A stretch of DNA of 44,571 bases, filler included, from Catajapyx aquilonaris (Eukaryota), in the NCBI GenBank assembly GCA_000934665.2. It is 2 parts of 2 records of this genome, joined end to end, with 100 filler letters (N's around TTAATTAATTAA, not from the genome) between each part and the next. Parts side by side here need not be neighbours in the genome. Positions count along the whole stretch, not along the records: positions 21,855 to 44,571 come from JYFJ02005990.1; 1 more part is not named here. One strand, given 5' to 3'. Shown here piece after piece: positions 21,755 to 42,432 of the stretch. The notes beneath the pieces are model-generated. The model was not told the DNA's origin. It did not search any database and saw nothing but the letters and a program-made list of their open reading frames with translations. Position numbers and translations under genes: made by a program. Every line of letters begins with the position of its first letter. The stretch's first letter is position 1.

Positions 21755-21854
21755 NNNNNNNNNNNNNNNNNNNNNNNNNNNNNNNNNNNNNNNNNNNNTT
21801 AATTAATTAANNNNNNNNNNNNNNNNNNNNNNNNNNNNNNNNNNNNNNNNNNNN
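21755..21854. other. Artificial assembly gap/linker
   Basis: Exactly 44 N + TTAATTAATTAA (stop codons in all six frames) + 44 N = 100 bp, a typical synthetic contig spacer. Confidence 0.95.
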
Positions 21855-21985: not shown

Positions 21986-22564
21986 TGTTTTACCAAGTGC
22001 GTGTTAGAAGATATGGGAACTGTAAGTAGCCTACACTAGCTCATCAATATACTGATGTTACAATTGACATAATACTTCTTGTAAAATGTATTGTATACTT
22101 GTCTATTTGTAAAATGTATTGTATACTTGTCTACTTGTAAAATGTATTGTCTACTTGTAAAATGTATGTCTACTTGTCTACTTGTAAAATGTATTGTCTA
22201 CTTGTCTACTTGTAAAATGTATTGTCTACTTGTCTACTTGTAAAGGTATGTGTTTGTCTACATAGATGGACCAGTTTGGACGACTCCTTCCCATGAAAGT
22301 GGCAAACTTGATTGCACCAGGTGAAGACGAAAGGTCATACCGAGCAGTACTTGGAAGCGCCTTCAGCTCATGTCTTGACCAAGGTGATTAATATTAATAT
22401 TATTAATAATAAAAGTATCAATATTACAAGTATATTGTTCTTGCACTTTTGAAGTGGAAGAGGAAATGTCTGAATCTGCTTCGATGGAGGAAGATTCCTG
22501 CGAGCTGGTGAACAGAGTGGTGGACTGCGCAGGACCCGCAGTGGCGCAACAATGTTCCTACTAA
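21986..22564 (+). CDS. OBP-like gene A, 5'-partial (signal-peptide and C1 exons not found, probably lost at the assembly gap)
   Basis: Exons 21986-22021 (CFTKCVLEDMGT), 22266-22383 (MDQFGRLLPMKVANLIAPGEDERSYRAVLGSAFSSCLDQ) and 22455-22564 (VEEEMSESASMEEDSCELVNRVVDCAGPAVAQQCSY*). GT-AG introns keep the frame. Shows C-X3-C and C-X8-C-X8-C. AATAAA at 22624. Confidence 0.8.
22073..22250 (+). repeat. Intronic minisatellite in gene A
   Basis: About 6 imperfect copies of CTTGTAAAATGTATTGT(C/A)TACTTGTCTA. Confidence 0.9.
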
Positions 22565-23003
22565 AACAATGCTTGTTTGCATTAAAATGTGTCTAGTATA
22601 TATTGCTAAAACCTACAGATCTGAATAAACTAAAAATTTGACTAATATTGACCTTCATTTTTGGAAAATCAAAAAACTCGCCGCATGAAATAGTACCACT
22701 GTTGTCCGCATGGCCCTAAAAGTGGCAGTAGTGTTCAGAGAGGGAGGATGCGCCATCTATGTGAGACGTGCGGTACTACATGGACAGTGTTGCCAAGTTT
22801 TGCCCATAATAAAATATTGCACTCTATATGCTGATGTCACATTATTAGTAACAACTGCTTACCTCATCCGAATTATCTGGTTCTATTTTGCGTGCAAAGA
22901 TGATTGAACGTGTATTTATACCGTTTCCGGCATGAGTGCAGCGGATATGTTTGGCGAGGGTTATTGCAACTCTGGGTTGAGTGCACATGGGTTGTCTGCA
23001 AAA

Positions 23004-23987
23004 ATGGTGGTTTCTACAATTACTCTGTTTGTGTTGCTGTTAATAGCTGCGACACAAGCTGCCAATGACGTAGGTTACCAGTACCAACTATTATTAATGT
23101 GAAATGATGTTGACATAATATCATAACAGACACTAAAACTTATTGCTATGTTTTATTGCAGGATATTGAGGACTATTGCAGATTTTTGAACTACCAATCG
23201 CAATCAGTCGAAAAAGCCAAGAGTGACTGCGCTTTTTCCAACAATGACGTACATGTTTTTCCAGTGATCTTAGCAATTAATTTACACAACTCACTAATCA
23301 AGGCCTTACTTTCAGTGTAACCTGAGATGCATTTTTCTTAACCTGAAAGTGGTAAGTACAACATTTGCTAAATTGAGTTATCTCAACATTTTAAAAAGAC
23401 ATTGCTAACTATTGTCCTGCGAATATTTTGGCATAAAATGATATTATGTGGACAGCTGGATGCAGAAGGATGGCCTGTCCCGATAAGAGTCGCTGCAGAG
23501 TATGCCCCTGGCGAATCCAACTGGATGCTTCGAGAAGCCCTCCTAAAATACTACGAAATGTGTTTAAATCAAGGTACAATATCTGACTAATCTAATCAAC
23601 ATTTTGCACCCCATTAACTTCACAACAAAATTAATTCCATGGAGCAGTCCCGATCACGAGAGGTCGAGACACAAACGATTGCACTAAGCTGTGGCCAGTG
23701 ACTCAATGCGTGGACCAAGCATTGTTGTATGTAAGTACTATAGCAGCAGCCATATAAGCCAAACCAGGACAAACACGCAAACAAACAAACATTGTCTTTT
23801 ATATGTAAGTTATATAGAAACCTAATAAAACCGGGGTGACTTCAAATACATATAGTTAATTTGTGAAGCATACGAACTAACTTGTAAGACATTTATTAAT
23901 TTCATTTACACAAATGATGTGTTATTAAGTAAATAACGCTCTAATGACATTTTAAATTTTCAGGAATGTAATGGCTACAATAAGTGA
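23004..23987 (+). CDS. OBP-like gene B, secreted 8-Cys protein, 137 aa, 6 exons
   Basis: Exons 23004-23069, 23162-23248, 23316-23351, 23456-23573, 23648-23730, 23964-23987, all GT-AG. Protein: MVVSTITLFVLLLIAATQAANDDIEDYCRFLNYQSQSVEKAKSDCAFSNNDCNLRCIFLNLKVLDAEGWPVPIRVAAEYAPGESNWMLREALLKYYEMCLNQVPITRGRDTNDCTKLWPVTQCVDQALLYECNGYNK. Hydrophobic signal peptide; AATAAA at 24016. Confidence 0.88.
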
Positions 23988-24244
23988 AGCTGTCATTGAA
24001 GAATTGTGATAGACAAATAAATGTCAAAAGTGACGGAAATCCGTGTACATTTTTGTGGATGACCCCACCTTCTCTCTCTATATAGTGTTGATATTATAGT
24101 TTTGTTCTGTGAGCGATAGTTCTTGTCTGATCAAACCGGAAGCAGGCTTGGAGCATCCCCTGATTGGATGGAGACTTTAAATCCGATGTGCACATCCGCA
24201 AAGGCATCCTTTCCAGTGGAAATCCTATTGAAAGTCAGACAATT

Positions 24245-25044
24245 ATGATGCGCTGCCTGCTATTCTTCGCTCTGTTGGCCGCCTGCGCCTTCTCGGCTGC
24301 TGAGGTCAAAGTTCATATATGCTGCACCCGCTGAATATTTGCCACTATAATGTTGTCTCTCATGTACAGGCTGGAACTTGCGCTTACGCACAATACGTCC
24401 CAGAAAATGCCCAGAACGCACAACACGAGTGCCTGAGCAACAGCCCAGAGGTTAGTCTTTCACTTATTATTATTATCATAATTATAATAATTATAATAAT
24501 AACAATTATTATTATTGAATATTAATTGTTAAAATATAACAATTATTTTATCGTTTTCAGTGCTATGACAGATGCCTTCTGGAGAAGCTGAAGTCTGTAA
24601 GTGTGTCTGCTCTACGGCGTCTAAATATTGTAATATCCTGCTGACACTTCAATATTGTTAATTATGAATTTACTGCTAATTGTAGCTGGATAACGAAGGC
24701 TGGCCCCGCCCACGCAAGTTCGCAGACCACTTCATCCCAGAGGCTGCCAACCCCCGATTGCACGAGCTCCTTCGCAGAAGCTTCAGACACTGCCTGCCCA
24801 ACGGTGAGTCCTGATTTGGCCATATTTGGTCTATAATTTGTTTAATTTTTTTCTCCTCTTCTAATTAATTGTAGTCGATCTTCGATCCAACATGGAGAGC
24901 GATTGCGTCACCGTTCAGTCCATCTCTTCCTGCGCATGGCGTGCTTTCTTTAAGGTTTGAAATATTTCAATGTACCATACTGTACACGTCCGAAATTCAG
25001 TTTGTTTACTACATTCTCCCACCTTTTTTTTTCAGGAATGCTAA
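24245..25044 (+). CDS. OBP-like gene C, secreted 8-Cys protein, 127 aa, 6 exons
   Basis: Exons 24245-24304, 24370-24450, 24561-24596, 24686-24803, 24875-24954, 25036-25044. Protein: MMRCLLFFALLAACAFSAAEAGTCAYAQYVPENAQNAQHECLSNSPECYDRCLLEKLKSLDNEGWPRPRKFADHFIPEAANPRLHELLRRSFRHCLPNVDLRSNMESDCVTVQSISSCAWRAFFKEC. AATAAA at 25058. Confidence 0.9.
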
Positions 25045-25694
25045 ATACTTCCATGAGAATAAAGGCGTCCGTGTGTAATACCTGATTTGCATTGAAATAA
25101 ATATCACATTTAGCACAATTAGACATTGGTACTTTTCATTGCGTGCGACTGGTGCATGTTGTTTCAGGAATTATTACTGAAGGATCAGGAGACGTCTGGA
25201 ATAATATAAAAATTGACTCATCACAATTATCGAAATGTAATTTGTATGTAAGTTATAATAAAATCTCACTGTTACAAACGCATACGGCCATCGACTGTAA
25301 CATACCATAAATAAAGCTTAAACTCGCATATTACAGATTTTATTGGCTCCCAAATGGTGCAGTTACTGCAGTCATTATTTGTCCGAAAATTTTCACACAG
25401 TACCACCGAAGCTTCAGCTAGTTATCTCTGTACAGTGTGTAGCCTACTGTACATAATTTATCCAAAAATTAATATAGTTTTTTCGTTTCACTATAGTGAG
25501 CAGTAGAGCCTATAGTTCAGACTCTTTATTTGAAGATTTGTTACGAAAAATGTTTAAAACAATAAATTGCTGGCCATCATTATTTGCAATTTCGGACTTT
25601 AGATAAGAGTTGTTGTACCGGATGCGAACTTTTATAGGCTGGATGGGTTAGTCGCACTTTATCGAAATGTCGTGGGCGAGAAAACTGTATCTCT

Positions 25695-25771
25695 AAACCG
25701 GAAGCAGCAGTCCCACCCACCAACCCGATTGGATTAATTAATTAACTGTCACTTAGGTCATCAGATATAAA
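25695..25771 (+). promoter_or_regulatory. Gene D proximal promoter: ETS-like CCGGAAG, inverted CCAAT, TATA
   Basis: AAACCGGAAGCAG...GATTGGAT...TATAAA. The first two blocks recur upstream of gene C (24133-24169). Confidence 0.55.
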
Positions 25772-25843
25772 GCATTATGTTGCTTCCTGACACTCCCGGA
25801 TTCACCATCGAGTGTCTCACACAATAATTATTATTGTCGAGAG

Positions 25844-26056
25844 ATGCGTTTGCTGCTACTGTTTGTACTGGCCGTTGTCGGCTTCAGCCTTCCAACAGCT
25901 CAGGTAAAATTGTACAGAATATTATTATCACATACTTTATCTCACACGTTGATTTATGCCAGGCCAAAATATGCAATTACATCGATTACGTCAACCAAAG
26001 GACCAAGGACACAAACGCATTCTGTATGTCCCAGAATTCCCATCAGGTACTACTAT

Positions 26057-26153
<97 letters not shown>

Positions 26154-27039
26154 CTTTTCGACAGTGTGTGCCAAAGTGCGTCCTGAAAGATTTGGGAACG
26201 GTGAGATATTTTAAATGCCAGGTTGATTATTATCATTTACGTAATGGAAAGTTAATTTTGATGATTTAAATTTTTTTAGTTGGATCAACATGACTGGCCT
26301 AAGGCAAGAAAAGTTGCGGACAATTTTTTCCCTGAAGCGGTCCATCCCAGATTCCACGAGAACCTTCGTCGATCTTTCAAACACTGCACACCTTCTGGTC
26401 AGCTGTTCATTCAAATTATCCAATTTTTAATTAGAGCGACTAATTTCACATTAAGCTGCTGATTACTCAGGGAGAGTCAATGGGATTTAAAATATTCGGT
26501 CTAATTGGCTGTGAATTAAAATTAATTTTTAGATTATGCTAATGGCCCATTGACTAATGAAATTAGCCTGACAAATAAGCAGCTTAGTGTCCTTAAATAC
26601 ATTACCGCCATTTAAGTTTAAACACACTCTATCGGCTGTATGGGTAGCTATAAAATTTTACTCAACTTGAAACATTTTGCAGAACATGTCCGGTCCAACA
26701 TGGTGGCCGACTGTGAAACTATCCAAACAATCTACAACTGTGCATGGGAAGAATTCGTCAAGGTAAGAAAAGTCTATCGTGGAGTTGCCTACTGTATACA
26801 TTCCGAGCTACATTCATACAAACCTTTATTTAATAATGCTCTACTTTCAAAAAATTGACATAGAGACGAGTATGATTATCGCATATTTACACATGTTAAG
26901 CATATTTTATACTAGTAAAATATGCGATAGACATACTCGTCTCTGTGTCAGCGTATAGGGTATAGATAATTATTAAATTAAATTGTAGTTTAAAATGACA
27001 TTGTGTCTAATACGAATGATTATTTTCCAGGCATGCTAA
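25844..27039 (+). CDS. OBP-like gene D, secreted 8-Cys protein, 128 aa, 6 exons; closest paralog of C
   Basis: Exons 25844-25903, 25963-26046, 26165-26200, 26280-26397, 26683-26762, 27031-27039. Protein: MRLLLLFVLAVVGFSLPTAQAKICNYIDYVNQRTKDTNAFCMSQNSHQCVPKCVLKDLGTLDQHDWPKARKVADNFFPEAVHPRFHENLRRSFKHCTPSEHVRSNMVADCETIQTIYNCAWEEFVKAC. TATAAA at 25766. Confidence 0.9.
26048..26153 (+). repeat. Compound microsatellite (TAC)n(TAA)n in gene D intron 2
   Basis: Directly visible; it fills most of the 118-nt intron 26047-26164. Confidence 0.97.
26856..26950. repeat. Inverted repeat/hairpin in gene D intron 5
   Basis: The left arm TGACATAGAGACGAGTATGATTATCGCATATTTAC pairs with the right arm GTAAAATATGCGATAGACATACTCGTCTCTGTGTCA (about 35-bp stem, about 24-nt loop). 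Confidence 0.9.
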
Positions 27040-27753
27040 ACGATCGGACGTGGAAGAGAGCACAATTTTTTTAAATAATAAAAAAACAGCTTCTCAATAT
27101 CAACATTCTGGAATTGGAGTCAGAAAAATTTCATCCAACGTTTCAAATAGGAAATAATAATAGTAATTAAATCTCTCCAGAAATGGCTATGTAATGTCCC
27201 GTCGCAATAAAAGCAGACAAAGTTATGCAACCTCACCACATAATCATACATTCGCAAATTATGCTTGACAATGCGTGGGATGATGCTGACTAACACATTC
27301 TATGAATATGATAAAAATGCGTGTCAGCATCCGGTTTACGCATTCCCGCAGTCTAATTTACAGGAAATCATCTCAAGCACCTGCGACGTAAGTACCTTAG
27401 TGTTTCACTATATGAGATTGTATGTTTATGCTCGATATTTATAAAAATAATGCGCACTCAACTTCTTGTAAACACATACGATATATGATCTCGGTGCAAT
27501 TAAGGTTTGGCCCGGTGCCACGCACTGCACTTGGGTCATGTAATAATTCTCGGTACTAAATGGCGTAGAAATGCGGAACCGTAATCTGCAGTGACGCCGG
27601 AGTTACATACTGTATATGGAGAGGGCCATAAATCGCATCAAGTTGCGTCGTCAGAATATATATATACGCACCGACGCTCTTTAAATACACTACGTACTCT
27701 ACTCACTCGCTTACTTCACTTTACACCAGTGTTACGAGCAGGTCAGCATCATC

Positions 27754-29428
27754 ATGTACTTCTTCCTCTTGGCTCTTCTGCTCGGATTGTCCTGCTGCCA
27801 ACATGGAACTGCCCAAGGATATGTGAGTTGTCTGGAACAATATTGTTGGGGAGGGTCATTGTTGAGCTGACTTATAATAAGATATTAATATTTTTTAGAG
27901 CAATGGAAACGGGGACTGCCAGCATCTGAACAAGTTGCCTCATTACGTGCAGATGACGCAGTGGGATTGCCTGGCTCAAGACCCTGAAGTAAGTGCATTG
28001 ATTTTTGGTCAAGTACGTAGCACTTAGATTAAGTGAAGTATAGCAGTACGGAGGGCTACAAGTTAAGTGTTTGTAGTAGTTATAGCGATTAATTTCAGCT
28101 GCTATCAAAAATATTATGTGCTAATTTTGAGCCGTAATTGGCTACTTCAAAAGAAAATAATTGTTAGGGTGAACTATTCGTTTTTACAAATTTTTAAATA
28201 TCAGTAGTTAATATTGAAAACATTCACTACAATTATTAAGCATATTAATCATATCGGATTAAAATTTAATTCTCCAAGAATATACAGCAGCAATATTATT
28301 TCATAATTCTCGAAATAAAATTAAATTAAAGGGCGATTCTTGCAAACTGATTTATCTAATAATCTATAGAGCTATTTAGAGCTAATGGCTATTTTTAAAG
28401 CCTTTGATTAAAACAAAGTATCAAAATATATAATATTATCCAAAACATTCGCTACACAATGTAATCATAATCTTATCGGATTAAAATTGAATTCTCGATG
28501 AATATGTACTTATACAAAGTATACAGTAATGATTTTTTTTACTAAAAATGTTTCAATTAAAGGGCGATTCTTGCAAACTGATGCGGTCCTTTCACTAATT
28601 AATCTACAGCTATTTAGAGCTAATTGTCATTTTAAAGCTTCTGATTCAGATGACGTTGCTGCTTGTGAATTATTTCAACTTCTGAATAATTACGATGTGA
28701 GGTTAACCTTCAGTGTGCCATAATATTGTTTGGGAAGTCTACTGAATCATCCTTATGGACGAAACAACATACTGTGCACATGAATAACAAACCATTCACA
28801 TGCTTGTGACGTAACTCTTCGTTACGAAACTGTTCAGATCCTAATTAAATCTGACAAGTCAGAAAATAAACTGTCACCTTTTGTACCCCCAACAATTCTC
28901 GACAAGTAAAATGCCAGACAATTACTTTACATGCTTTCTGTTGTACTTCCAGTGTCATGACAAGTGTGTGTTCAAGAGACTTGGCGTGGTGAGTTATATT
29001 TTTAGATCAGCAAGTGCATCATAAATGCTAATAATTTTCGCCACATTTTGCACTAGATGGATGAAACCGAATGGCCCAAACCATGGGAAATTGCGAAGGA
29101 ATTTGCAGGAGGAAATGTCAACATGCGTCTGTTCAACTCGGCTTGGAGGGCTTTTGCTCACTGCAGTCCTTCCGGTAAATTCATTCAGAAATTTAATTTA
29201 AAAAAATTATGATTAAAAAAAACGAGCTAATTGAATTTTTCTGCAGATGATGCTCGAAGAGGCAGAAGGAGCACATGTCAAGATATTCTGACTTTGGTTC
29301 TGTGCGCTTGGCAGCAAATGTACCAGGTATGACCCTTTCTTTATTAACTGCGTATACTTTGGGCAATGCAATCAACATGTACTAATTACTCGCCTTAATT
29401 TTTGCAGGATTGCGGAGCAGCAAAATAG
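27754..29428 (+). CDS. OBP-like gene E, secreted 8-Cys protein, 137 aa, 6 exons
   Basis: Exons 27754-27822, 27899-27988, 28953-28988, 29057-29174, 29247-29326, 29408-29428. Protein: MYFFLLALLLGLSCCQHGTAQGYSNGNGDCQHLNKLPHYVQMTQWDCLAQDPECHDKCVFKRLGVMDETEWPKPWEIAKEFAGGNVNMRLFNSAWRAFAHCSPSDDARRGRRSTCQDILTLVLCAWQQMYQDCGAAK. Confidence 0.88.
28218..28647 (+). repeat. Tandem duplication of about 200 bp in gene E intron 2
   Basis: ATCGGATTAAAATT, AATTAAAGGGCGATTCTTGCAAACTGAT and AGCTATTTAGAGCTAAT each occur twice in order (about 28218-28410 and 28443-28647). Confidence 0.8.
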
Positions 29429-30770
29429 GCATGTTGGAGGGCAACACAAGACTTAAGACTGCATTTACTGAGCTGTTTACTATAATCGCAACATAATGGC
29501 AATAATTTTAATACTCATTTTTAATATACATGCGATTCTGCCAAGCAATGATTTATGCTTGATAATGTTTAAAAAATGTGCTTATTACGTGGGTATTCCC
29601 CAGGGCAATATGCTGACATAACAGTGCAAGTAACACTATTAAAGTTGTTCACTCCCAGGGGAAGTCGGCGCATGTACATAAATTGTCCACTTCAAGGCTG
29701 CCAAGTACTCGTATAATAATAATTATAAATAACCTCGCACTGTAAGTTTCACCAATAAAAATTCATTGCATGTCATTAGACCGCATATTGAGTTTTTGTT
29801 TGAGAATGAAAACGATTTTGTTTCAGGAGTTCAATTTGGATGTGTTTGGGAAATTCGACTTGCCTTTCTGATTGTTGCATGATGTTGTCTACATGAAAAA
29901 TTAATGTTGTGACACTTCCACGGGAAGAAACTTTCCGAATTTTCCCAGAAATTTATTTTCCAAGACTTAAAACAGGTTTAAAGGACTGTAGAGGAGAATA
30001 ATTATCAATTTACATTTAATTATTATTCGCATGCTGTACAGTGTACTGCAGCTGCAGTTTACTCATGGAAGTAAAAAAGAGTATGAAATTAGCCATTCAA
30101 ATTCATTTTTTTTGATCTCAAAGATTTCTGTCACATGGTGTCGTAAGAGTGTGACGTGTCACTGTGTATAAAACAAGTCCAAGATCACAGGAATGTCGCG
30201 CGTGCAAATAAAATGTGTCCTCAGCCATATCCGTTTCAAATTTGTGTGTTTAAAATCAATTCGCGTCGCGTCGTCTGTCGCCTGATCTCTTTTTTTTCGC
30301 GAAATGACGAGAGTTTTTTTTTTTTAAAAAAAGAGAGACGTTGCGAAATGATTGGGTTACGCCCTTGGCCCATTGAATTAAGTAGCGACCTTGGCATTGC
30401 GTAATTTTTGAAGATGAACCAGCACACTCCCCCAGCCATAAATTTAGACAGCAATAAACCCATTCCTTCATCTTCATCTTTTTTTTTAAAAGTCACTTCC
30501 GCGCCAGAAGGATATGGGACCCAAGAATGGCGTGTTTGTTCCCGGTGTGTGTATATGCCAGCTTCTTCATCTCATGACACATACACGTACACATTGCGCT
30601 TGTTACCCCCTAAACGAGACGCTCATTAACTTTTTATGGGGGTTGAAATTGCGACGTTACTGCTTCTTACTGGCTCAGGACAGGAAATCAACATAATTAC
30701 GTGACACATCAACAATGTCCAGAAATTGATTATATAATCTTAATGGCATAAAAATATTTTTACAAAGTCA

Positions 30771-31228
30771 TGCTTGAAGTTCAAAAAAACATGACACAAA
30801 TTTTTGCAAGTCTAACCCAACCTAACCTACATCACAGGCGATTAAACTATTTATTCTGCAATTAGTGTATATACCTTTCATATTTTCTCATTCGTAATCT
30901 AATGTAGCGTACTATTGTCTGTCAGAAAATATTTAAAATTCAATCCTAATATTCTTCCCATAACAACGGCCAAAAATGATATTACCAATTATTTACAAAA
31001 TGCTGCAAATATTTGTTACAAATAATTACTGCTTGAAGTTCAAAAAAAACATGACATTTTGCAAGTCTATAATCTAATAAGATTTCCATCACAGTTGATT
31101 ACTCTCTAATTCTTCTGCAATTAGTGTCTACCTTTCATATTTCTAATTCGTAGTCTAATGTACTATTGTCTGTCCGAAAAATTTTAAAATTAAATCCTAA
31201 AGTTCTTCCCCATAAAACGGTCAAAAAA
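30771..31228 (+). repeat. Direct duplication of about 200 bp upstream of gene F
   Basis: 30771-30976 and 31030-31228 share TGCTTGAAGTTCAAAAAAACATGACA, CTGCAATTAGTGT, TACTATTGTCTGTC and AATCCTAA-TTCTTCCC. Confidence 0.85.
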
Positions 31229-31407
31229 ACAATGAATGAAATTTCCAGGAAAAGAATATGCAAAAAAATGGCGAGAAATTAACCCCCGTGTAGTTTTTTG
31301 CACTGACACGAATGTGGCGAGTGTCTCTTCCCACAACCTTGAGAGAATTGTATGCACAAAAAAAAGGTGTAAATTTTAATCCAAGAGACGATGCGGAACA
31401 GCATCCG

Positions 31408-31414
31408 TATAAAA
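31408..31414 (+). promoter_or_regulatory. TATA box of gene F
   Basis: TATAAAA lies 59 nt upstream of the ATG at 31467. Confidence 0.6.
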
Positions 31415-31466
31415 GCAAGGAACGAGGTGGAAAAGGAAGAAAAGGTGTGAAAGGACAGCTCCAAAG

Positions 31467-32488
31467 ATGATCAAGGCCTTCCTCATCGCTCTTTGCTTCC
31501 TGCAAGTCGTCCTGGTAAATCAAATTTAATTGTCTTACATTGGTTTTTTTGTACAAACAAATAGGGTAAAAACATTCTTCTCTCAAAACTGGGTACTCAT
31601 TGTACTGTACATATAATAATTATTTTTAACTGTGATTTTTTCCCCTTTCAAATAAGGCTGATGATGATCACAAGTGCTGGGATGAATCTAAAGTTCCGGA
31701 TGATTGGAAGGCAATAGATCAGAAATGCGGAACTGATAACGATAACGCCGACGAAGTTACTGCGGTAAATTATTTTTAAATAGGTTATTAAATTCGCACA
31801 ATAATTTGAATATTTTTTGCCGACTCAACGCAACGGGCTAAACCGCACATAATAAATAATAAAAATCTCACTTTCTTCTTCAGTATGTCAACCCCTTCAC
31901 AAATTGCCTCATGATGTGTGTTAAAATATTTTACTGAAACTGGCAGTTAAATTATTATTATGCAGTTTATAATATCATGTTAAAATACACAGCGGGACAG
32001 GGTTAAAAGGGGTGATAATAATAATGATAATAACAAACATTTCGGTTTTCAGTGCCAGTTCAAGTGCTACCTGGAGAATCATAAGCTGGTAAGTTACTAA
32101 CAGTCAAACTCGAGTTTGACTGCAATTTTAATAATAATTAATATTTGAAACACTTTCAGGTGGATGATTCAGGTCATCCCTTACTGGAAAGATTCATTGA
32201 AACGATGAAATTGGCTGCATATGATCAGTACAGGGATCAATTAAACGCAGCAACTAAGACTTGCTTGGACCAAGAAGGTCAGTAAAATTAACCAGGATGG
32301 TCACTAACGGCGATTAAAACATGCTCGGTTTAATTGCAGGAGAGAATGTGGATCCTGAAGGTGATGATTGTGCTGGTTACCAGGCTCTTCTGGACTGCCT
32401 GAGAACCAAGTTTCATGAGGTAAGAAGTTCATGTAATATTTGAGAAGTACATTATGTAATTTCATGTTTTTTTTTGCAGTTTTGCTAA
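31467..32488 (+). CDS. OBP-like gene F, acidic secreted 8-Cys protein, 132 aa, 6 exons
   Basis: Exons 31467-31514, 31657-31764, 32053-32088, 32160-32277, 32340-32419, 32480-32488. Protein: MIKAFLIALCFLQVVLADDDHKCWDESKVPDDWKAIDQKCGTDNDNADEVTACQFKCYLENHKLVDDSGHPLLERFIETMKLAAYDQYRDQLNAATKTCLDQEGENVDPEGDDCAGYQALLDCLRTKFHEFC. TATAAAA at 31408. Confidence 0.9.
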
Positions 32489-33148
32489 CTTGTCTTTTTT
32501 TTCGGCAACGGACAAGTAGAAGATCGGATGCCAGTAATGAAACATACCCTGTAATACTGTATCATCGCAAATAAATAATTTGCAAGTTATTCCTTATAAG
32601 TATTATTATAATGTGACTCTAACAATGTTTTTTTCCGTCTAATTTATGTAGTCTGCAGTTTTCAAACCTAATGGTTACTTTAACCATATAAAATTGCTAT
32701 TTTTCGTTAAATGGCTTCTAATTGTGGGTCCAAAAATAGTGAAAAAATTCAGACTTGTTACATACTTGTACATTGAAGGCATCTTCGGCTGCCACCCACA
32801 AATTTTTTATTACAATAAAATTTTTAAACAAGAAACAAACTATATGCTGGACGTATTAATACTTTCATTTTTGGAGTACATTTTTTATACTTTTTATGAG
32901 CATATTTCGACATTTTGGGCGTGAGTAGCAGCCACATTCATCTATACGTAATAAAAGTGATTTCATATTTTTAAATTACTTTAAAGGAGCTAACTGCGCA
33001 TAATTTGTGCAAGTATTTGTGTTGCAGCACCCTGCATATGTACCCTAAATCAGTTTACAGCCTGTTTCCGTGACGAACAACTGGCTACGGTAATTATTCA
33101 GCCGTGAAATCGGACTGAAGGACCTTCCTGTCCTGTAAAATTGAGTCT

Positions 33149-33156
33149 TATATAAA
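33149..33156 (+). promoter_or_regulatory. TATA box of gene G
   Basis: TATATAAA lies 39 nt upstream of the ATG at 33188. Confidence 0.55.
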
Positions 33157-33187
33157 GAGAGTTTTACAGGTTTTGTTGTCTGCAATC

Positions 33188-33868
33188 ATGGCTATGCGTC
33201 TCATCGGATTGTTGTTTGCTGTGGTCGCAGGCGTGCCTTTGGAAGGTCCAGGCGGCTGTCCGGATTCGATGCCTTGGATCCCTGACATTGCGCATCCGGA
33301 CTGTCCAGTCTCGGAAGAGGTAACTTGCAAACATTATTAAACCGGACATATTAACGAACATCCAAAATATTTCTAGTGCCAGCAACGTTGCCTATTGGAA
33401 CGAAAAGGACTGGCAAGTACCTCACACCAGACCATGTACAGTGTAATGTAATGAATATTGCTCTGTACCTTATCGTACCAGCTGTACTATGATGGGTTCG
33501 TGGACATCGGACGAATCTACGAGCTGATCCACGACGTCCATGTGCCCTTCAGGCTTCAGGAAATGGTCGAGTCTATGGCAGACACCTGCTTCCACATGCA
33601 CGGTAAGACTGGAAAAAAAGAGTGATTGGAAAATGAGGCCTGTCAGGTTTGACTACTGTACAAATGATATTAATGTTCGTTGAAAGGTGAGGAGGCAGGT
33701 GAATGGGGTTATATGGAAGAGCGCCAGATGAACAGGTGTGAACCTTACGAGAGATTCGCCGATTGTCTACGTACCAACAGCAAATTGGTAAGTCAACACG
33801 TCACGCTTTTTTGCATCTTCTGTAGTGTTCACATTATTATTTTTTCTCTCCAGGTGTGTCCAAAGTGA
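33188..33868 (+). CDS. OBP-like gene G, secreted 8-Cys protein, about 134 aa, 5 exons, one GC-AG intron
   Basis: Exons 33188-33319, 33377-33412 (donor CTG|GCAAGT), 33482-33602, 33687-33787 (an alternative in-frame acceptor lies 12 nt downstream), 33854-33868. Protein: MAMRLIGLLFAVVAGVPLEGPGGCPDSMPWIPDIAHPDCPVSEECQQRCLLERKGLLYYDGFVDIGRIYELIHDVHVPFRLQEMVESMADTCFHMHGEEAGEWGYMEERQMNRCEPYERFADCLRTNSKLVCPK. TATATAAA at 33149. Confidence 0.83.
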
Positions 33869-34583
33869 GCATCATTTCATCGCCAGCCATGAATATAGTC
33901 AATGTCTGCAATAAATTTCGTTACAAGTTGTGCCCAGTCATTTTTGTGAATTATCCAGCCCCATGTGTGATGTGTAATCTACACATGTACAGTTGTACAC
34001 GCTCTGAATATTCTCCAAATGGAAATTAGTATTTTTAGGCGAATTAGGATAGACAAATAAAGCTGGTAATTATTTCAAGTAAATCGATTGCCTTTCCGTT
34101 TACTGACTTATTCCGAACATAAAGTTCATGTCTCCTACAGTATACATTACACCGAAAGTGAAACGAAAGCCACCTGGGGTCAGTACATTACTTTCACACG
34201 ACATTGTTAACAATAACGCGGAAACCTGATGTGTTATAATTCCTTCTATTTTTTTTGTGACGGGTCAAACCAACACGTAATTTTAATGCGTCCATCACGC
34301 AAGAGAGCGCAACATCACACGGCCATGCTCTTCCTGTGCGCTTTATTCAGCGGTCTTCTTGATGGACATTGTCGCCTGCCTATTGTTGCCAAGTGTCACG
34401 AGTTTAGCGGCCAACTGCCAGCTTCCGCCTTCCGTATTTGCCACATAACACCGGAGATGCACGTATCCTGATTGCAATATTTTTTTTTTAAAAAAAATAA
34501 TGAGAGCCAATAAACACCTCCTATATTAAGCCGCGCTCGATGCCAATAATTCTCACAAACTTTTAAAAAATCCGAGCTTGAAG

Positions 34584-35287
34584 ATGAAGCTTGTCGTTTG
34601 TATGTGTTTGCTGATATTAGGTGCAGATGCCGACACCTTCGAAAATGTAAGTTAAATTATGCAAATTATAATTATTTTGAAGTTTAAATCCGTTCACTCT
34701 ACTGCAATCCTGACTTCAAGCTGTTGTTAATTAATTAATTGATGTGTTGCAGTTTGAAGGATCTGGTACTTCACCCGGCCGTAATTGCGATCGAGAGTCG
34801 ATTCCTGAGGTAAGTACTGTACACAAAAGTACTTTAGCTCTGTACGTAAAATAGATAAGAAGCACTCATTTATCTTGGGTGATTTCAGTGCGCATTCCGA
34901 TGCAGCTTGATGGATACGAAACTGGTAAAAAGTTCAAGGTGAGATCAAATTGAGCCCGTGACATTTTTGTTTGTCAATCTTTCAGCTGAACTCAGAAGGG
35001 AAAGTAGACCAGACTCAAGTGGACACACAAATTCGACAGATGATGGAGGATAACAAGGCTTCTCACAAGAGAGATCTCCAGGCACTCAAAGCCTTGAAGC
35101 AATGCTCGCAAATGAAAGGTCAGAAATTATTGCTTTATAATAGTTAAAAAGTATTTTCTGCGTGTCAAAGTTCAAGCTACTGAACTATTGTGCTTTTTAA
35201 TTCACAGAAACAGTAGTAGACCCAACCCTGTCTGATTGTCAAGGATACACTCCTCTCTACAACTGTTTCATTCAACGCATGAACTAA
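34584..35287 (+). CDS. OBP-like gene H, secreted 6-Cys protein, 122 aa, 5 exons
   Basis: Exons 34584-34646, 34753-34809, 34889-34924, 34986-35118, 35208-35287. Protein: MKLVVCMCLLILGADADTFENFEGSGTSPGRNCDRESIPECAFRCSLMDTKLLNSEGKVDQTQVDTQIRQMMGDNKASHKRDLQALKALKQCSQMKETVVDPTLSDCQGYTPLYNCFIQRMN. AATAAA follows near 35330. Confidence 0.87.
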
Positions 35288-35804
35288 TACGCCCTGAAAA
35301 TTTGTTAATTAGTCTAATCGCACTTTAGAAATAAAAATTGGTCAGCCATTAACCAGGTGTCACCCAACTTCCCAACAGAATACTCTGCATTTTTCAGTGA
35401 GTTTAAACAACATGTTCCGTCAAAACGAAAGTATTTTTTTGCGCAATATAGGTCATGGTGCATTTTTGTTGTATCTTCAAATTGTTATCCTTACTCCCAT
35501 TTTTGGGGTTAAGTAATTACCCTTCCAGCCTTGCCAAAAATGCGGCTAATTATATAAAGTTACCGAAGAAGCATCACACCTTAATTGTCATGAAATAATA
35601 AGTCACGCAAATTTTGCCCCCAATATAAAATTTAGAGGCTGCAACATCCGGAGGTGTGTTTGCAGGGGGTGGCCATTGCCCAAAAAAAACCACCCACTTC
35701 CATATCACGCCCTACATATTATACACACACAAATACTGAGTGTCTGTATATATATTGGGATGCGACTCATCCTCATTGCCTCAGTAATTGTTGAAGTACA
35801 GACC

Positions 35805-37079
35805 ATGATGCTGGTGCTCGGGATTCTGTTGTGTTCAGTCTGTGTCTCTGCTGGACCAGGACAACAATGCATGGATAACATGAGGAGCAGGAGTGAGGTA
35901 TATGTTGCATTACACTCATTACCTTTTTTATCAATTAAATGAAGTAAGGTCGCTTTATCATTCAGATCATTGTTCAAAAAAAAAGTCTACTCACCCTAAA
36001 GGTAATGAGCTTAAATATTAGCGAAGAACAGTGCCAGTTTTACATCAAATTAACGGCTCAATAACCAACTTTGAAAATCCCGAGTATTACCCATCGAGTG
36101 TTCATGTCAAAGTTGCATGACCCCTGTTCGCTCATTGCGCAATGACAAAGCTGTTGAGTAACTCTAGCTGCTTCCTCCCACTATTCATGACCCATTGTCG
36201 CACTTATGGTGTAATCGTTCCGGTTTTGTGTCGTACTTGATACAATTAGGGCAGATCGAGTACAATCCTCGAATTGAGATAACAGTATTTTTTTGTCAAT
36301 AATTTTCTGGCTTTATTTCCAGTGCCTCTCTCGATGTTTGCTGGACAAATTGGGACTGGTGAGTACTACTTACTCTCGGAGTAACCTTTTTATCGCAAAG
36401 AGAAAAAAATTAATTGCACTTTCGCGTCGGTTCAATGTTATTGCTTCTGATTATTAACAGCGATGTTTTTTTTCAAGCTGGATGAAAAAGGCCGACTTGT
36501 GCAATCGATTCTGAGGCAGGAGTTTCCTAATTATTGGGAACCGCCAACTACAACCGGGGCACCTTCTGACACCGTGTCGCTGTCAGAGGTCGTGACCTGC
36601 CTCAAAGAAGAAGGTGACCAAAGGGAAAGTGATACTGAGCCCACATTAAATCAAAATGAATATTTTGCTACATTTTATGAAGCATGTTCGTTCTGACGGT
36701 TTTGCAAGCAGCAGAAATATTAAATCCTGATATTATTGTAATATTAAGATAATTATGCCTACCACTTTGATCTGTAATCAAGTGATTCGCATGTGCGTCT
36801 TTGGGTTGGCAATGTTAATGTTGCTTCCTGCCTTTCAAAATTTTACTATAGCTTCAACTGTCTGTTACAGCCAAAGTGGTTCAGACGGAGAAGCTGACGT
36901 GCAAGGACTACGACAACCTGATGTACTGCACCATACTGCATCCCAAGGAACAATATTACGACGAATACGACACAATCGAAAGCGGCGATCCACAACCTGG
37001 TGTCCATCTCGCAGGAAGTGTATCAGCTCAAAACAACAAACATATTTTTCTTCCGCCTCTGATACTACGACGGCATTAG
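35805..37079 (+). CDS. OBP-like gene I, secreted 6-Cys protein with a 49-aa C-terminal tail, about 157 aa (169 aa if candidate exon 35966-36001 is used)
   Basis: Exons 35805-35897 (MMLVLGILLCSVCVSAGPGQQCMDNMRSRSE), 36323-36358 (CLSRCLLDKLGL), 36478-36613 (LDEKGRLVQSILRQEFPNYWEPPTTTGAPSDTVSLSEVVTCLKEE) and 36871-37079 (AKVVQTEKLTCKDYDNLMYCTILHPKEQYYDEYDTIESGDPQPGVHLAGSVSAQNNKHIFLPPLILRRH*). TATA-like run near 35748; AATAAA immediately after the stop. Confidence 0.8.
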
Positions 37080-37494
37080 ATGACAAATAAACTTACCTCT
37101 TAACAGGAATATTTATGTGAATGGTGCACTATTCTGTATAAACCGACAATCAGAAACTATCAGTTTGAAATAAATTAAGGTTGGCTCCCTGGACCTGGGC
37201 ATTCCTACACATAAAGAATTGAAGTTCTCACAGTAGTTACGTCAAAGGAAACTATCATTTTAATAGCCAGTTTTTTGACCTAGCCCGACTGAATAAAGGA
37301 TTGAATGGACAACAATGGTGCGAGGAAGTCACTGCACAGTTTCCCATAGGAGGAGAACAGATGAAGCATGATCTCGTGTGACTTGGGTGCATTTAGATGA
37401 GAAATTTTACGAGTTGTCATTAACTAGATACAAAAGAGGGTTTATGATGGCCACAGGAAATGCGCAATTTTTTATATAAAAAAACGCAGGTTAC

Positions 37495-37526
37495 TATAAA
37501 GATCAGTGTCGCACACTATGTCATTG
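37495..37526 (+). promoter_or_regulatory. TATA box plus initiator-like element of gene J (equivalents at 39595 for K and 41647 for L)
   Basis: CTATAAAGAT is conserved in all three paralogs. TCA(T/C)TGTCAC follows 26 nt after the TATA in J and K and 35 nt after it in L, then GAGCAACATG at the start codon. Confidence 0.7.
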
Positions 37527-37551
37527 TCACGGCTGACGACATCAGAGCAAC

Positions 37552-38004
37552 ATGAAGGGTTTGCTCTTGATGTCTCTGGTTCTGATCGCCATTCAGTCTG
37601 TGGTCCATGCGCAGGGCGAGGAGGGTAAGGTCGGTATTGCCTAATCAAAATACTCCCAAAATATGAGAATAATATTTTTTCCTCTTATTAATTTTCTCAC
37701 AAGTGTTTGCTATTACTTGTAGTGTCCAGAGCAAAGAGTGATATCTTCCGTGCTTGCGAGTTGCATGAACAGAAAACCCCGAACTAAGCGAGGATTACCA
37801 CCCGAAATGGCCGCGAAATTTACTCCTGTAAGTTGGAAATCTCTAAAGCCCATGCCTTTATAATCAGATTAATATTATATATATAATAATTAATAATATA
37901 TATCATTATAAATTCCAGTGCTCCCTCAAGTGCCTAATGAAAAGGTTGAACCTGGTAAGGCCTACTGGATGTGAACATTTTGCACCACTTCTAATAACAA
38001 TAGC

Positions 38005-38090
<86 letters not shown>

Positions 38091-38374
38091 GTCATTAAGC
38101 TTGACGGCAATGGTCGCATGCTGAAGGAGAAAGCATTGGCACTGATGGACGACTGCAGCAAACAGTACAAAATGTTCGAGGATGTACTGAAGCAGGCTAT
38201 GGCGTGTGCCGATGCACATGGTAACAATTAACAGGACAATATATTGTACCTTCAGTTACGAGTACTAACATTGCGTTCGTTTCATTTTCAGCCGAGGAGG
38301 TAGACGGGAATGAAAAGGACCCCTGCCCTTCCTTCCGGGGCTACAGAAGCTGCGTATTTGATGTGCCCAACTGA
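37552..38374 (+). CDS. OBP-like gene J, secreted 8-Cys protein with an internal RTKR site, 140 aa, 5 exons
   Basis: Exons 37552-37629, 37723-37827, 37919-37954, 38100-38220, 38292-38374. Protein: MKGLLLMSLVLIAIQSVVHAQGEEGKCPEQRVISSVLASCMNRKPRTKRGLPPEMAAKFTPCSLKCLMKRLNLLDGNGRMLKEKALALMDDCSKQYKMFEDVLKQAMACADAHAEEVDGNEKDPCPSFRGYRSCVFDVPN. TATAAA at 37495. Confidence 0.9.
38005..38090 (+). repeat. (TTA)n microsatellite, gene J intron 3
   Basis: Directly visible. Confidence 0.97.
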
Positions 38375-39020
38375 ACTTTGTGTAACAAGAAGAAGGATAA
38401 AAGCGGATAAAATAATTATGTAAACCTAATTATAAAGTACAGCGGGACCCACCAATATTACGCCAACTGCAATCATTACAGCCTCCTGTAACCAGCATAT
38501 ACTGAGAGCTAATAAACTATTTTTATCAGCATGCGAATGGATTTCACTAGCCAAGCAAATCATGAAGCTACAGCTCACTGTTTTATCCATAGAGTGCAAT
38601 TTTATCAAAGCGGTTTTATCACAGTTTCAACAATAGCAGTAGTGATGATTTACGATGGTCAGTAAAGAAAAAGACAAACAGACTAATGAATAAATAACTA
38701 AATAACTACATTAGACAGAAAGGAAGGAAGAAATCAAATGATTTGGATTCTGGAGGAAACAATTATTCTGAATTATCCTAAAAATTGCACAATTAAAATG
38801 GAGAATTTATCCCTTCAATATGGTCGCTGATGGGAATTACAAAAATATATTCTAAACCTACATGACTGCCATGAAATTCTTATTGTTCAATAAAATAAAT
38901 AATTATTGCACTATAAAGGCGTGGCCTGCACAAAAATGATGTGGTCAAGTGAGTCACATTGGCAAAATATTGTCACGTAATTGACCACATAATCAGGGAA
39001 CAATCAGGGAACAATGCTGT

Positions 39021-39264
39021 ATTGAGATAACAGCTAGTTCTAAGCAATTTTCTGCTTTATTTCCCGTGCCTCTCTCGATGCTTGCTGGATAAATTGGAAC
39101 CTGGTGAGTACTATACTCTGGGAGTAACCTGCAAATTTTTATCGCAAAGAGAAAAATTAATATTGCACTTTTGCGTCGGTTCAATATTGGCTAAATTATT
39201 GCTTCGGATTAACTGTGACGTTGGCTTTTTTAAAGCTGCATGAAAAAGGTCCGACTTGTGCAAT
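39021..39264 (+). pseudogene. Pseudogenic fragment of a gene-I duplicate
   Basis: Homologous to about 36272-36505. The micro-exon copy 39067-39103 (CLSRCLLDKLE...) has its acceptor changed from AG to CG and a 1-nt insertion (37 nt). The next intron is retained. The next exon is cut after about 29 nt (39236-39264) and fused to sequence homologous to the gene-J upstream region (37170 onward). Confidence 0.85.
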
Positions 39265-39651
39265 AAATTAAGGTTGGCTCCCTGGACCTGCTGGATATTC
39301 CTATAGATACACATAGAAATGCAGTTCTCACACTAGTTACGTCAAAGGAAACCATCATTTTAATGGCCAGTTTTTTTGACCTAGCCCGACTGAATAAAGG
39401 ATTGAATGGACAACAATGGTGCGAGGAAGTCACTGCACAGTTTCCCAGAGAACAGGTGCAACATGATCTCGTGTGACTTGGATGCATTTAGGTGTCGAAA
39501 TTTTACGAGTTGTGATTAACAAGATGCAAAAGAGGGTTTGTGATGGCCACAGGAAGTGCGCAATGGTCGCATTTAAAAAAGAAGCCCAGGTTACTATAAA
39601 GATCAGTGTCGCACACAATGTCATTGTCACAGCTGACGACATCAGAGCAAC

Positions 39652-40065
39652 ATGAAGTGTTTGCTCATAATGTCTCTGGTTCTGATCACCATTCAGTCTG
39701 TTGTCCATGCACAGGATGAGGAGGGTAAGGTCGGTATTGCCTAATCAAAATACTCCCAAAATATCAGTATAATATTTTCCTCTTTCGTAGTGTCCAGAGC
39801 AAAAAGTGTTAACGAACGTGTTTGCGGGATGCATGAGCAGAAAACCCCGAACTAAGCGAGAAATACCTCCCGACGTAACCGAGAAATTTACTCCTGTAAG
39901 TTGGAAATCTCTAAGCCCATGCCTTTATAATCAGATTAATAATATATTATTAATATAATATATATAATTATTCCAGTGCGTCCTCAAGTGCTCAATGAAA
40001 AGGTTGAAACTGGTAAGGCTTGTTGGATGTAACATTCTGAACCATTTCTAATATAACATTGAGTC

Positions 40066-40140
<75 letters not shown>

Positions 40141-40437
40141 GCTTGACGACAATGGTCGCATGCTGAAGGAGAGAGCATTGGCAATATTGAACGACTGCAG
40201 TAAACAGTACAAAATGTTCGAGGAAGTACTGAAACTGGTCATCGTGTGCATCGAAAGACATGGTAACAATATTAATTGGACAATAAATAATTATTTTACC
40301 TTCAGTTACTAGTGCTATTAAACATTGCGTTCGTTTCATTTTCAGCCGAGGAGTTAGACGGGAATGAAAAGGACCCCTGCCCTTCCTTCAGGGGCTTCAG
40401 AGACTGCGTAGTTGATGTGGCCAACGAAGCCCTTTAA
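39652..40437 (+). CDS. OBP-like gene K, recent paralog of J, internal RTKR site, 143 aa, 5 exons
   Basis: Exons 39652-39729, 39791-39895, 39977-40012, 40142-40262, 40346-40437. Protein: MKCLLIMSLVLITIQSVVHAQDEEGKCPEQKVLTNVFAGCMSRKPRTKREIPPDVTEKFTPCVLKCSMKRLKLLDDNGRMLKERALAILNDCSKQYKMFEEVLKLVIVCIERHAEELDGNEKDPCPSFRGFRDCVVDVANEAL. TATAAA at 39595. Confidence 0.9.
40066..40139 (+). repeat. (TTA)n microsatellite, gene K intron 3
   Basis: Directly visible; it abuts the acceptor AG. Confidence 0.97.
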
Positions 40438-41710
40438 CAAGAAGCTGATATAATTATTATGTAAACCTGATTATAAAATACAGCGGGACCCACCAATATT
40501 ACGCCAACTGCAATAATTACCAGCACACTGTGATAGCCAATAAAGTCGTTTATCAAACAATATAATATGATTTCACTCACAAGCAAATGTGGGTTCATCA
40601 TGAAGCTACAAAGGATGGCTCACTGCTTTATCAAAGTTTCAACAATAGCGTATAGTGGGTTAAGATGGTCAGTAAACAAACAAACAGACAGACAGACGAA
40701 TGATTAAATAACTAAATAAAGAAATAAAAAGAAAGAAGTTCAATGCTTTTGATTATGGAGGAAACAAGATTATTTTAAATTATCCTAAAAATGCACAATT
40801 TACTTACTGGTGGTGTGTTATACGATGGTTAGTAAACAAATAAACAAACAAACAAATTCAATGTTTTGGATTATGGAGGAAAAAATTATTATAAATTATC
40901 CTAAAAATTTGACAATTATTAAAATAAAGAATTTAGCCCTTCAATATTGCTCATTGGAATGACTTAAAATTTATTCTGAACCAATAAATGATGCAATGAA
41001 ATTATTATTGTTCAATAAAATAAAAATTGCACTAAAGGCGTGGCCTGCACAAAAATGATGTGGTCAGTCACATTGGCAAATATTGTCACGTTATTGGCCA
41101 CATAATAATCAGGGAATATCGGCAACAATGCTGTATATTGGTTGCTAGATAATTTTTTATGAGCGCAACCGAATGCGCACTTGCGTTTGTACAAAAATCA
41201 TCTTTAGGAGGCATATTTTCGTACATCGCTCAGCACCAATCTGTGTAAATTGACACATTCCTAAACCTAATTATCATTATGTAATTATTTTAGGTTTGCT
41301 CACTGATATGTACAAAATATCTGTACGTATAGCCACTAATACGATGCGAAGTTCTCACAGTAGTTGCACAACAGGAAACTATAATTTTAAACGCGTTTTT
41401 TGACATATAGCGACCGGTCTGGATGGCTAACGCCCGACTGAATAAGGATTCCACAGGAATAACGACACTGGACAACAATGGTGTCGAGGAAGGTCCGACT
41501 GCAACAGATTCGCATCGAATAGATCCTCATCGCGTGCGACTTTTTCGTTACCATTAGGCGTCGAAATCCCCTCTGGGTTACGAGATGGCGTCTAATTCGA
41601 TGACCACAGGAAGTCCGCAATCGTCACGCTTGTCCTTCCCTCCGACTATAAAGATGCAGGGAGTGACCACACAACCGGTTATCACTGTCACCAGACGACA
41701 TCTGAGCAAC

Positions 41711-42064
41711 ATGAAGGTCTTGCTCCTAACAGCTCTGGTTCTGATCGCCATCCAGTCTGTAGTAGTAGTCCATGCACAGGATGATAATAAGGTCTGTAAT
41801 GCCTATTCTTGTTCCGGACAGTACTGTGTTGTAACACATTGTTTTAGTGCCCAGATAAACAGGTGGTTATGAGCGTGGTGGGGGGTTGCTTCGCCACAGG
41901 CGGCCGAAGGAAGCGAAACATGCCTCCAGAGATGGCAGAGAGGATCACTCCTGTAAGTGTTAGCCTTTAATTTAATTTATATTTCATTAAAATAATGCAT
42001 GTCCTCGTAATAATTTCAGTGTGTCGTCAAGTGCATCATGCAGGGTCTGAATCTGGTAATTATT

Positions 42065-42142
<78 letters not shown>

Positions 42143-42432
42143 GTTCGACTCCANCTCCAGTAACAAAATGCCGAAGGAAAGAGGATTGGCCATATTGGAC
42201 GACTGCATGACACAATACCCAATGTTCGCCCCTATCCTGGAGAAGGCCAAGGAGTGCGTCGCAACTCATGGTAACAATATATTAACTGGACAATAGAACC
42301 TTCAGATGCGACTTGTAATATTGCGTGAATTATTTTTTTTCAGCCGATAGTTTAGATGGAAAAGATAAGGAGCCCTGCCCAACCTTCAGTCCCTTCAGAG
42401 AGTGTTTAATCAAGGCAGTCATGGGAGGTTAA
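41711..42432 (+). CDS. OBP-like gene L, paralog of J/K, internal RRKR site, about 143-145 aa, 5 exons
   Basis: Exons 41711-41791, 41848-41952, 42020-42055, 42144-42270, 42344-42432. Protein: MKVLLLTALVLIAIQSVVVVHAQDDNKCPDKQVVMSVVGGCFATGGRRKRNMPPEMAERITPCVVKCIMQGLNLFDS(XS)SNKMPKERGLAILDDCMTQYPMFAPILEKAKECVATHADSLDGKDKEPCPTFSPFRECLIKAVMGG. The CTCCA-N-CTCCA at 42149-42159 looks like an assembly-join duplication (in frame, +6 nt versus J/K). TATAAA at 41647. Confidence 0.88.
42066..42142 (+). repeat. (TTA)n microsatellite, gene L intron 3
   Basis: Directly visible; the last unit forms the TAG acceptor. Confidence 0.97.

Follow-up and report, generated by a model that had tools for sequence, protein, structure and literature searches.

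Does the DNA between positions 21986 and 42432 of the window analysed here carry a true gene family and, if so, do its members belong to the odorant-binding proteins (OBPs) of the PBP/GOBP family? The window is the whole stretch of 44,571 nucleotides and consists of two joined parts, which need not be neighbours in the genome; positions 21855–44571 come from JYFJ02005990.1 and are preceded by 100 filler letters. The first half of the question can be answered plainly. The gene array is real, and its 12 units, designated A to L in their order along the DNA, are one family of common ancestry. The likely answer to the second half is an OBP-type scaffold, and the proteins would then be additions to an already known family.

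The genes were located through their smallest exon. Stretches of 36 nt lying between AG and GT or GC and encoding C-X3-C in any frame were collected, and the plus strand of 21000–43500 yielded 16 of them. In twelve, the first and fifth codons of frame 0 encode the cysteines, and these micro-exons start at 21986, 23316, 24561, 26165, 28953, 32053, 33377, 34889, 36323, 37919, 39977, and 42020. Each has a pyrimidine-rich acceptor and a donor of the GTAAG/GTGAG type, with a single GC donor in gene G. The remaining four matches (24594, 31884, 37490, and 39590) carry the motif in another frame or position. As controls, the minus strand of 21000–43500 gave nine matches, just one of which has cysteines at codons 1 and 5, and the plus strand of the window outside this interval gave three. 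The earlier note on this DNA had claimed 12 same-strand genes in about 20.5 kb; 12 plus-strand units do lie where it placed them, and its bounds coincide exactly with the beginning of the first micro-exon (21986) and the final stop codon (42432).

Each micro-exon is followed, 61–244 nt downstream, by a middle exon with a phase-0 start and a phase-1 end (12 of 12). This exon is 118 nt long in six genes, 121 nt in three, and 127, 133, and 136 nt in one each. It begins with [LMVF]D in 10 units and has glycine at residue 5 in nine, and the base carried over the phase-1 junction is G in every unit. All 12 units end with an exon that contains C-X8-C and a stop codon. Hence the trio of exons described in the earlier note (36-nt C-X3-C, 118–136-nt phase-1, and C-X8-C) is found throughout, and so is the signal-peptide exon it had assigned to the 11 complete genes: a first exon with ATG and a hydrophobic core (highest Kyte-Doolittle mean over 10 residues 2.8–3.6) is present in 11 of 11, gene A having none. 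One point is to be added to the four-exon plan of the note: most units consist of five coding exons, in which the signal exon is followed by a further exon that supplies one or two additional cysteines and precedes the micro-exon. Once spliced, each of the 12 models is open; they encode 87–169 residues, the complete ones 122–169.

Splice sites, base composition, promoter elements, and polyadenylation (poly(A)) signals indicate that these are 12 separate transcription units and not a chance pattern. The models contain 45 introns, 44 of which are GT-AG and one GC-AG; the donor consensus is G/GTAAGT, and the acceptors are T-rich with CAG. Intron lengths range from 56 to 964 nt, and 37 introns fall between 56 and 129 nt. 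The GC content, which played no part in exon choice, is 0.485 in exons, 0.294 in introns, and 0.368 in intergenic DNA, with the window as a whole at about 37–45%. TATA stands between −110 and −40 relative to the ATG in seven of the 11 units with a start codon; among 5000 random positions, the share is 6.8%. It is located at −78 in D, −59 in F, −58 in I, and −57 in J (TATAAAG), and in J, K, and L it is a conserved CTATAAAGAT. An initiator-like (Inr-like) TCA[GT]T stands at the usual spacing after TATA in I, J, and K; in J and K it reads TCATT and lies 26 nt past TATA, and L has none at that spacing. Promoters of this type, with TATA and an Inr-like motif, are known from arthropods, but neither they nor the short introns are diagnostic of the host. 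Downstream, A[AT]TAAA is found within 150 nt of the stop codon in 11 of 12 units, as compared with 25.5% at random.

The common ancestry of the units is evident from their intron positions and phases, which are common to all 12, and from profile comparisons. In leave-one-out full-length profiles with close paralogs removed, every member reaches 27–71 bits, a score that none of 1000 shuffles of that member equals; the comparison is weakened by not being fully independent, because exon choice partly used the cysteine pattern. Pairwise protein identity is 50% for C/D, 72% for J/K, 49% for J/L, and 48% for K/L. All other pairs share 11–33%, which bears out the claim that outside C/D and J/K/L little is held in common beyond the cysteines.

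Gene turnover by birth and death, also proposed in the earlier note, is visible in the young J/K/L duplicates, whose DNA repeats with a period of 2.05–2.1 kb, and in a dead fragment of gene I. This fragment (39011–39264, plus strand, 254 nt) lies in the spacer between J and K and is 80% identical, over 267 aligned positions, to 36262–36505, which covers the micro-exon of gene I, the intron after it, and the beginning of the middle exon. It retains the C-X3-C codons, its frame reads on without a donor, and no further gene I exons were found downstream of it. The ratio of nonsynonymous to synonymous substitution (dN/dS) is 0.99 for J–K (dS 0.15), 0.74 for K–L, 0.49 for J–L, and 0.21 for C–D. These values show old copies under constraint and a youngest pair, J/K, without measurable constraint. 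All eight cysteines are nevertheless kept in both J and K, and the J–K ratio could mean that, shortly after duplication, constraint was relaxed or selection favoured diversification.

What kind of protein, then, does the array encode? A motif used to search for OBPs, as set out in the accessible part of PMC7380018, is C1-X15-39-C2-X3-C3-X21-44-C4-X7-12-C5-X8-C6. It is meant as an operational filter and does not define a structure. Two of its spacings had been claimed for the array and proved invariant, C2-X3-C3 and C5-X8-C6 each being present in 12 of 12 proteins. C3 and C4 are separated by 41–47 residues, with 42 in eight of the 12, and C4 and C5 by 13–21 residues in all 12. Further upstream, a cysteine occurs 20–34 residues before C2 in B–G and J–L, and gene I has one when the optional exon 35966–36001 is included, so that the C1–C2 range of the motif is mostly respected; an extra cysteine 5–12 residues before C2 is found in most members. 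A, D, F, G, and I have an extra C-terminal cysteine or a long tail. The proteins also have the small secreted size of insect OBPs (mature about 120–140 residues), with a signal-type N-terminus in 11 of 11 complete models and a full length of 122–169 residues; the signal-peptide cleavage site comes from a crude rule that is unreliable and cuts too early. The family-averaged hydrophobicity has a helical periodicity index of 1.77, in comparison to 1.02 ± 0.29 for column shuffles, 11 of 1000 of which were as high, and this lends weak support to an all-alpha protein.

One exon also provides a lead among known structures. When the 12-residue micro-exon profile was compared with 177,635 distinct Protein Data Bank (PDB) sequences, five matches were obtained at E ≤ 10, and the best (E = 0.8) and fifth-best (E = 6.8) belong to the D7 salivary proteins of mosquitoes, a group within the OBP superfamily. 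Both align at their C-x-x-K-C-V-L-E segment. Translated over the splice junction, the micro-exon and the beginning of the middle exon yield C-x-x-[KR]-C-[VLI]-[LFM]-x-x-L-G-x and then L-D-x-x-G, a series that presumably resembles the core of the PBP_GOBP consensus and is a lead rather than a test. Collectively, an OBP identity is the best reading of pattern, size, and gene layout, not of a hidden Markov model (HMM) or fold match; both invariant spacings, the size of the proteins, their secretion signal, and their arrangement in tandem fit it.

Several results weigh against this identity. The complete motif is absent, since C4–C5 lies inside 7–12 residues in none of the 12 proteins. C3–C4 is inside 21–44 in 10 of 12 and above 44 in H and I, mature H has no cysteine at the classic C1 distance, and most members have additional cysteines before C2. 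The cysteine count of B, C, and E would be odd once the cysteines judged by eye to lie in the signal peptide are set aside (crude-rule counts 7, 8, and 9). The D7 matches are not significant alone, and three of the five PDB matches are NDUFA8. Searched singly against Pfam, none of the 12 middle exons matched PBP_GOBP, and four unrelated weak single matches appeared instead. The middle-exon profile found two unrelated matches and no OBP in the PDB, and the terminal-exon profile found zero matches there. Among 7998 scored candidates from a word-indexed collection of longer proteins, the middle-exon profile had no match at E ≤ 1; exact copies among these candidates should have appeared, because the members score 41–62 bits on the profile. 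The gene J middle exon alone drew six candidates from this collection, none at E ≤ 1. An exhaustive profile search of 1.84 billion representative proteins revealed no relatives and one unrelated match. In addition, at least one of J and K may be unconstrained.

That lone match of the exhaustive search (E = 6e-5) is a 510-residue repeat protein that aligns with profile positions 1–15 only and carries Pfam LonB LID; it was set aside as unrelated. A protein atlas consulted with the middle exon of gene K gave no usable match. These exon-level searches are low in power; the middle-exon profile alone scores even the true paralogs G, H, and I, when left out, at about 1–2 bits. The claim of OBP membership is borne out in its two spacings, departs from the full motif at C4–C5, and gained no exon-level OBP match in Pfam or, apart from the non-significant D7 lead, in the PDB. 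The exons were found in no protein of the two large collections, which is compatible with the idea that automated annotation has missed these genes, but the genome is perhaps unannotated.

Could the array instead encode a separate, undescribed family of secreted cysteine-rich proteins that shares C-X3-C and C-X8-C with OBPs by convergence? Such a family may differ in fold and function, e.g., as antimicrobial, adhesive, or signalling peptides. The lack of an exon-level HMM or structural link, the C4–C5 spacing beyond the motif in 12 of 12 proteins, the extra cysteines, and the lack of relatives in the exhaustive search are all as this explanation would have it, and the available passages of Vizueta et al. 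2018 leave structural convergence possible for the resemblance between OBP-like proteins and OBPs (PMC5952958). However, the two spacings, the C3–C4 distance of about 42, the size, the signal peptide, the helical periodicity, and the tandem clustering all agree with OBPs, the top PDB match of the micro-exon is a D7 protein, and the weakness of the exon-level searches takes force from their silence. On balance, we consider a separate family unlikely. A different alternative concerns the state of the genes rather than their identity: most units might be decaying pseudogenes, open by chance or youth, with at most a few functional. The J–K and K–L substitution ratios and the dead gene-I-like fragment point this way, as do the loss in D of a stop codon common to C and E, the GC donor, weak last acceptor, and odd hydrophobic tail of G, and the absence of matching proteins in the databases searched. 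Yet all 12 frames remain open over three to five exons with canonical splice sites despite 11–33% identity among the old copies, and C2, C3, C4, C5, and C6 are retained in all. The C–D and J–L ratios and the enrichment of TATA and poly(A) signals likewise speak for working genes, which makes widespread decay very unlikely.

On the preferred reading, the array consists of 12 independently transcribed paralogs and one dead fragment, each gene giving a secreted protein of roughly 12–18 kDa that is probably built on the OBP cysteine scaffold. After cleavage of the signal peptide, the protein would fold into a tight bundle of helices held together by disulfides, which in classic OBPs pair C1–C3, C2–C5, and C4–C6. 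Its putative task would be to carry small hydrophobic ligands in extracellular fluid. The earlier note's suggestions of a non-olfactory function and of secretory, salivary, seminal, or gill expression are guesses. The array probably grew by repeated unequal crossing-over; neighbours are the most similar pairs (C/D and J/K/L), and old copies have diverged until little besides the cysteines, intron positions, and phases was left.

Comparison with known systems places the array closest to classic insect OBPs (PF01395). Both have a signal peptide, a small secreted protein, C2-X3-C3 and C5-X8-C6, and a C3–C4 distance of about 42, and both occur in tandem clusters with birth-and-death evolution. In contrast, C4–C5 is 13–21 here and 7–12 in classic OBPs, and usually one extra cysteine lies 5–12 residues before C2. 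Five-exon genes are described for some insect OBPs, such as aphid OBP2, in the part of PMC7380018 available. Mosquito D7 proteins are alike in the 10 residues of the micro-exon profile that align (E = 0.8) to C-x-x-K-C-V-L-E, but their long form is a 297-residue chain, about twice the size of the array proteins.

OBP-like proteins of chelicerates and myriapods, as far as passages of PMC5952958 describe them, are similarly secreted and helical, with six or more cysteines and lineage-specific tandem expansions; chelicerates have one to four copies and the centipede Strigamia 21, 19 of which were first detected in Vizueta et al. 2018. By eye, the Strigamia sequences do not resemble the array proteins. 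Five peptide motifs from C, D, I, and J had 0 occurrences in the OBP-like sequence supplement of that paper (one file), and six exon-derived 5-mers had three occurrences in all, which is uninformative. Varroa OBPs differ from insect OBPs in cysteine positions and pairing (C1–C6, C2–C3, and C4–C5) according to the accessible text of PMC8222343. The array proteins keep the insect-type C-X3-C and C-X8-C. Large expansions are known from mayflies and cockroaches, with hundreds of divergent OBP genes, many having non-antennal expression; in excerpts of PMC7250882, the mayfly Cloeon dipterum has 191 OBP genes, 25 of them gill-specific. The same five motifs had 0 occurrences in 12 of the 20 supplement files of PMC7250882, and the likely OBP-sequence file is not among the 12.

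Other cysteine patterns were considered as well. The chemosensory protein (CSP/OS-D) pattern is C1-X6-8-C2-X16-21-C3-X2-C4 in the portion of PMC7380018 available. The series here is C-X3-C, X41–47, C, X13–21, C-X8-C, which is not that of a four-cysteine CSP, and the sole C-X2-C among the models lies in the doubtful hydrophobic tail of G. Patterns of the CHH and saposin types were rejected on their spacings.

How much the array matters depends in part on its host, which is presumed to be a hexapod. In an insect, it would probably be ordinary, a neatly preserved cluster of the birth-and-death kind typical of the OBP family, and the main use would lie in 12 curated gene models whose micro-exons, as small as 36 nt, could lead a gene caller to break the genes up. 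Passages of PMC5850775 report OBPs only from Hexapoda and state that they are absent from Daphnia and other crustaceans, and the portion of PMC5952958 available likewise notes their absence from crustaceans. The array would thus carry more weight in a non-hexapod, since current surveys place OBPs only in Hexapoda. Such a host, e.g., a crustacean, which would hold the first classic-pattern OBP radiation outside Hexapoda, or else an undescribed secreted family that arrived at the OBP cysteine code by convergence, is distinctly improbable; either would bear on when and why the carrier fold arose. The array would also gain weight if the extra cysteine before C2 and the long C4–C5 loop define a structural subclass, or if the near-neutral J/K pair is a duplicate caught just after birth.

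The flanking DNA, 21 kb upstream and 2 kb downstream, contains no recognisable gene, RNA family, or homolog. Pfam searches with 12 plus 81 flank open reading frames (ORFs) gave nothing above cut-off, and Rfam gave 0 matches. A 178-codon ORF on the minus strand (8717–9250) is long for chance, and no family or homolog was found for it. Runs of 44 Ns each occupy 21755–21798 and 21811–21854, with 12 bases between them, and single Ns occur at 256 and 42154.

The individual models, all on the plus strand, differ in security. Gene A (21986–22564; exons 21986–22021, 22266–22383, and 22455–22564) is incomplete at its 5′ end and lacks the signal exon. Because its first recognisable exon begins 132 nt after the N runs, this may be a loss in assembly rather than a biological one. 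Its last acceptor was picked by the 71-nt intron length of other units, the alternatives being 22431 and 22461. Most of its unusually long 244-nt intron is filled by a 28-nt minisatellite of about six copies (22078–22244). Gene B extends over 23004–23757 (exons 23004–23069, 23162–23248, 23316–23351, 23456–23573, and 23645–23757), and gene C over 24245–24960 (24245–24304, 24370–24450, 24561–24596, 24686–24803, and 24875–24960). Gene D (25844–26858; 25844–25903, 25963–26046, 26165–26200, 26280–26397, and 26683–26858) has a C-terminal extension: within 26765–26858, AGA replaces the TGA stop of C and E, so that the frame is longer by about 32 codons. Alternatively, AAG/GTAAGA at the missing stop is a new donor. 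A (TAC)20(TAA)16 run (26048–26153) lies in the gene D intron just before the micro-exon.

Gene E (27754–29332; exons 27754–27822, 27899–27988, 28953–28988, 29057–29174, and 29247–29332) contains the 964-nt intron. Within this intron lie two short repeat pairs (28217–28646), and a rival exon at 28610–28696, inside the local repeat, was not adopted. Gene F (31467–32443) has exons 31467–31514, 31657–31764, 32053–32088, 32160–32277, and 32340–32443; a possible extra in-frame 36-nt exon at 31884–31919 was likewise not adopted. Upstream of F, a direct repeat of about 225–236 nt, 78% identical, occupies 30752–31227. The repeats near F and in the E intron may be remnants of an insertion.

Gene G (33188–33868) has four coding exons, 33188–33319, in which the signal and the upstream cysteines are fused, 33377–33412 with its GC donor, 33482–33602, and 33687–33868, which adds a long hydrophobic tail. 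Its last acceptor has alternatives at 33699 and 33720, and the model is among the least secure. Gene H (34584–35287) has five coding exons (34584–34646, 34753–34809, 34889–34924, 34986–35118, and 35208–35287). Gene I (35805–37079) has four or five, depending on the optional exon (35805–35897, 35966–36001 optional, 36323–36358, 36478–36613, and 36871–37079), and a long C-terminal tail.

The three recent duplicates close the array. Gene J (37552–38374) consists of exons 37552–37629, 37723–37827, 37919–37954, 38100–38220, and 38292–38374; an alternative first intron, 37624/37730, has a better donor and costs one cysteine. Gene K (39652–40437) comprises 39652–39729, 39791–39895, 39977–40012, 40142–40262, and 40346–40437, and gene L (41711–42432) comprises 41711–41791, 41848–41952, 42020–42055, 42144–42270 (with the N at 42154), and 42344–42432. 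About 200–280 nt upstream of the ATG of J and K, a 79-nt block (37271–37349 and 39372–39450) is 99% identical, the coding exons of the two genes being only about 84–93% identical, and a weaker copy lies upstream of L. Possible interpretations of this block are a conserved regulatory element, a 5′ exon, and a gene-conversion tract. In J, K, and L alike, the intron that separates the micro-exon from the middle exon holds a perfect (ATT)n tract of 25–29 copies, at 38005–38090, 40066–40139, and 42066–42142, respectively.

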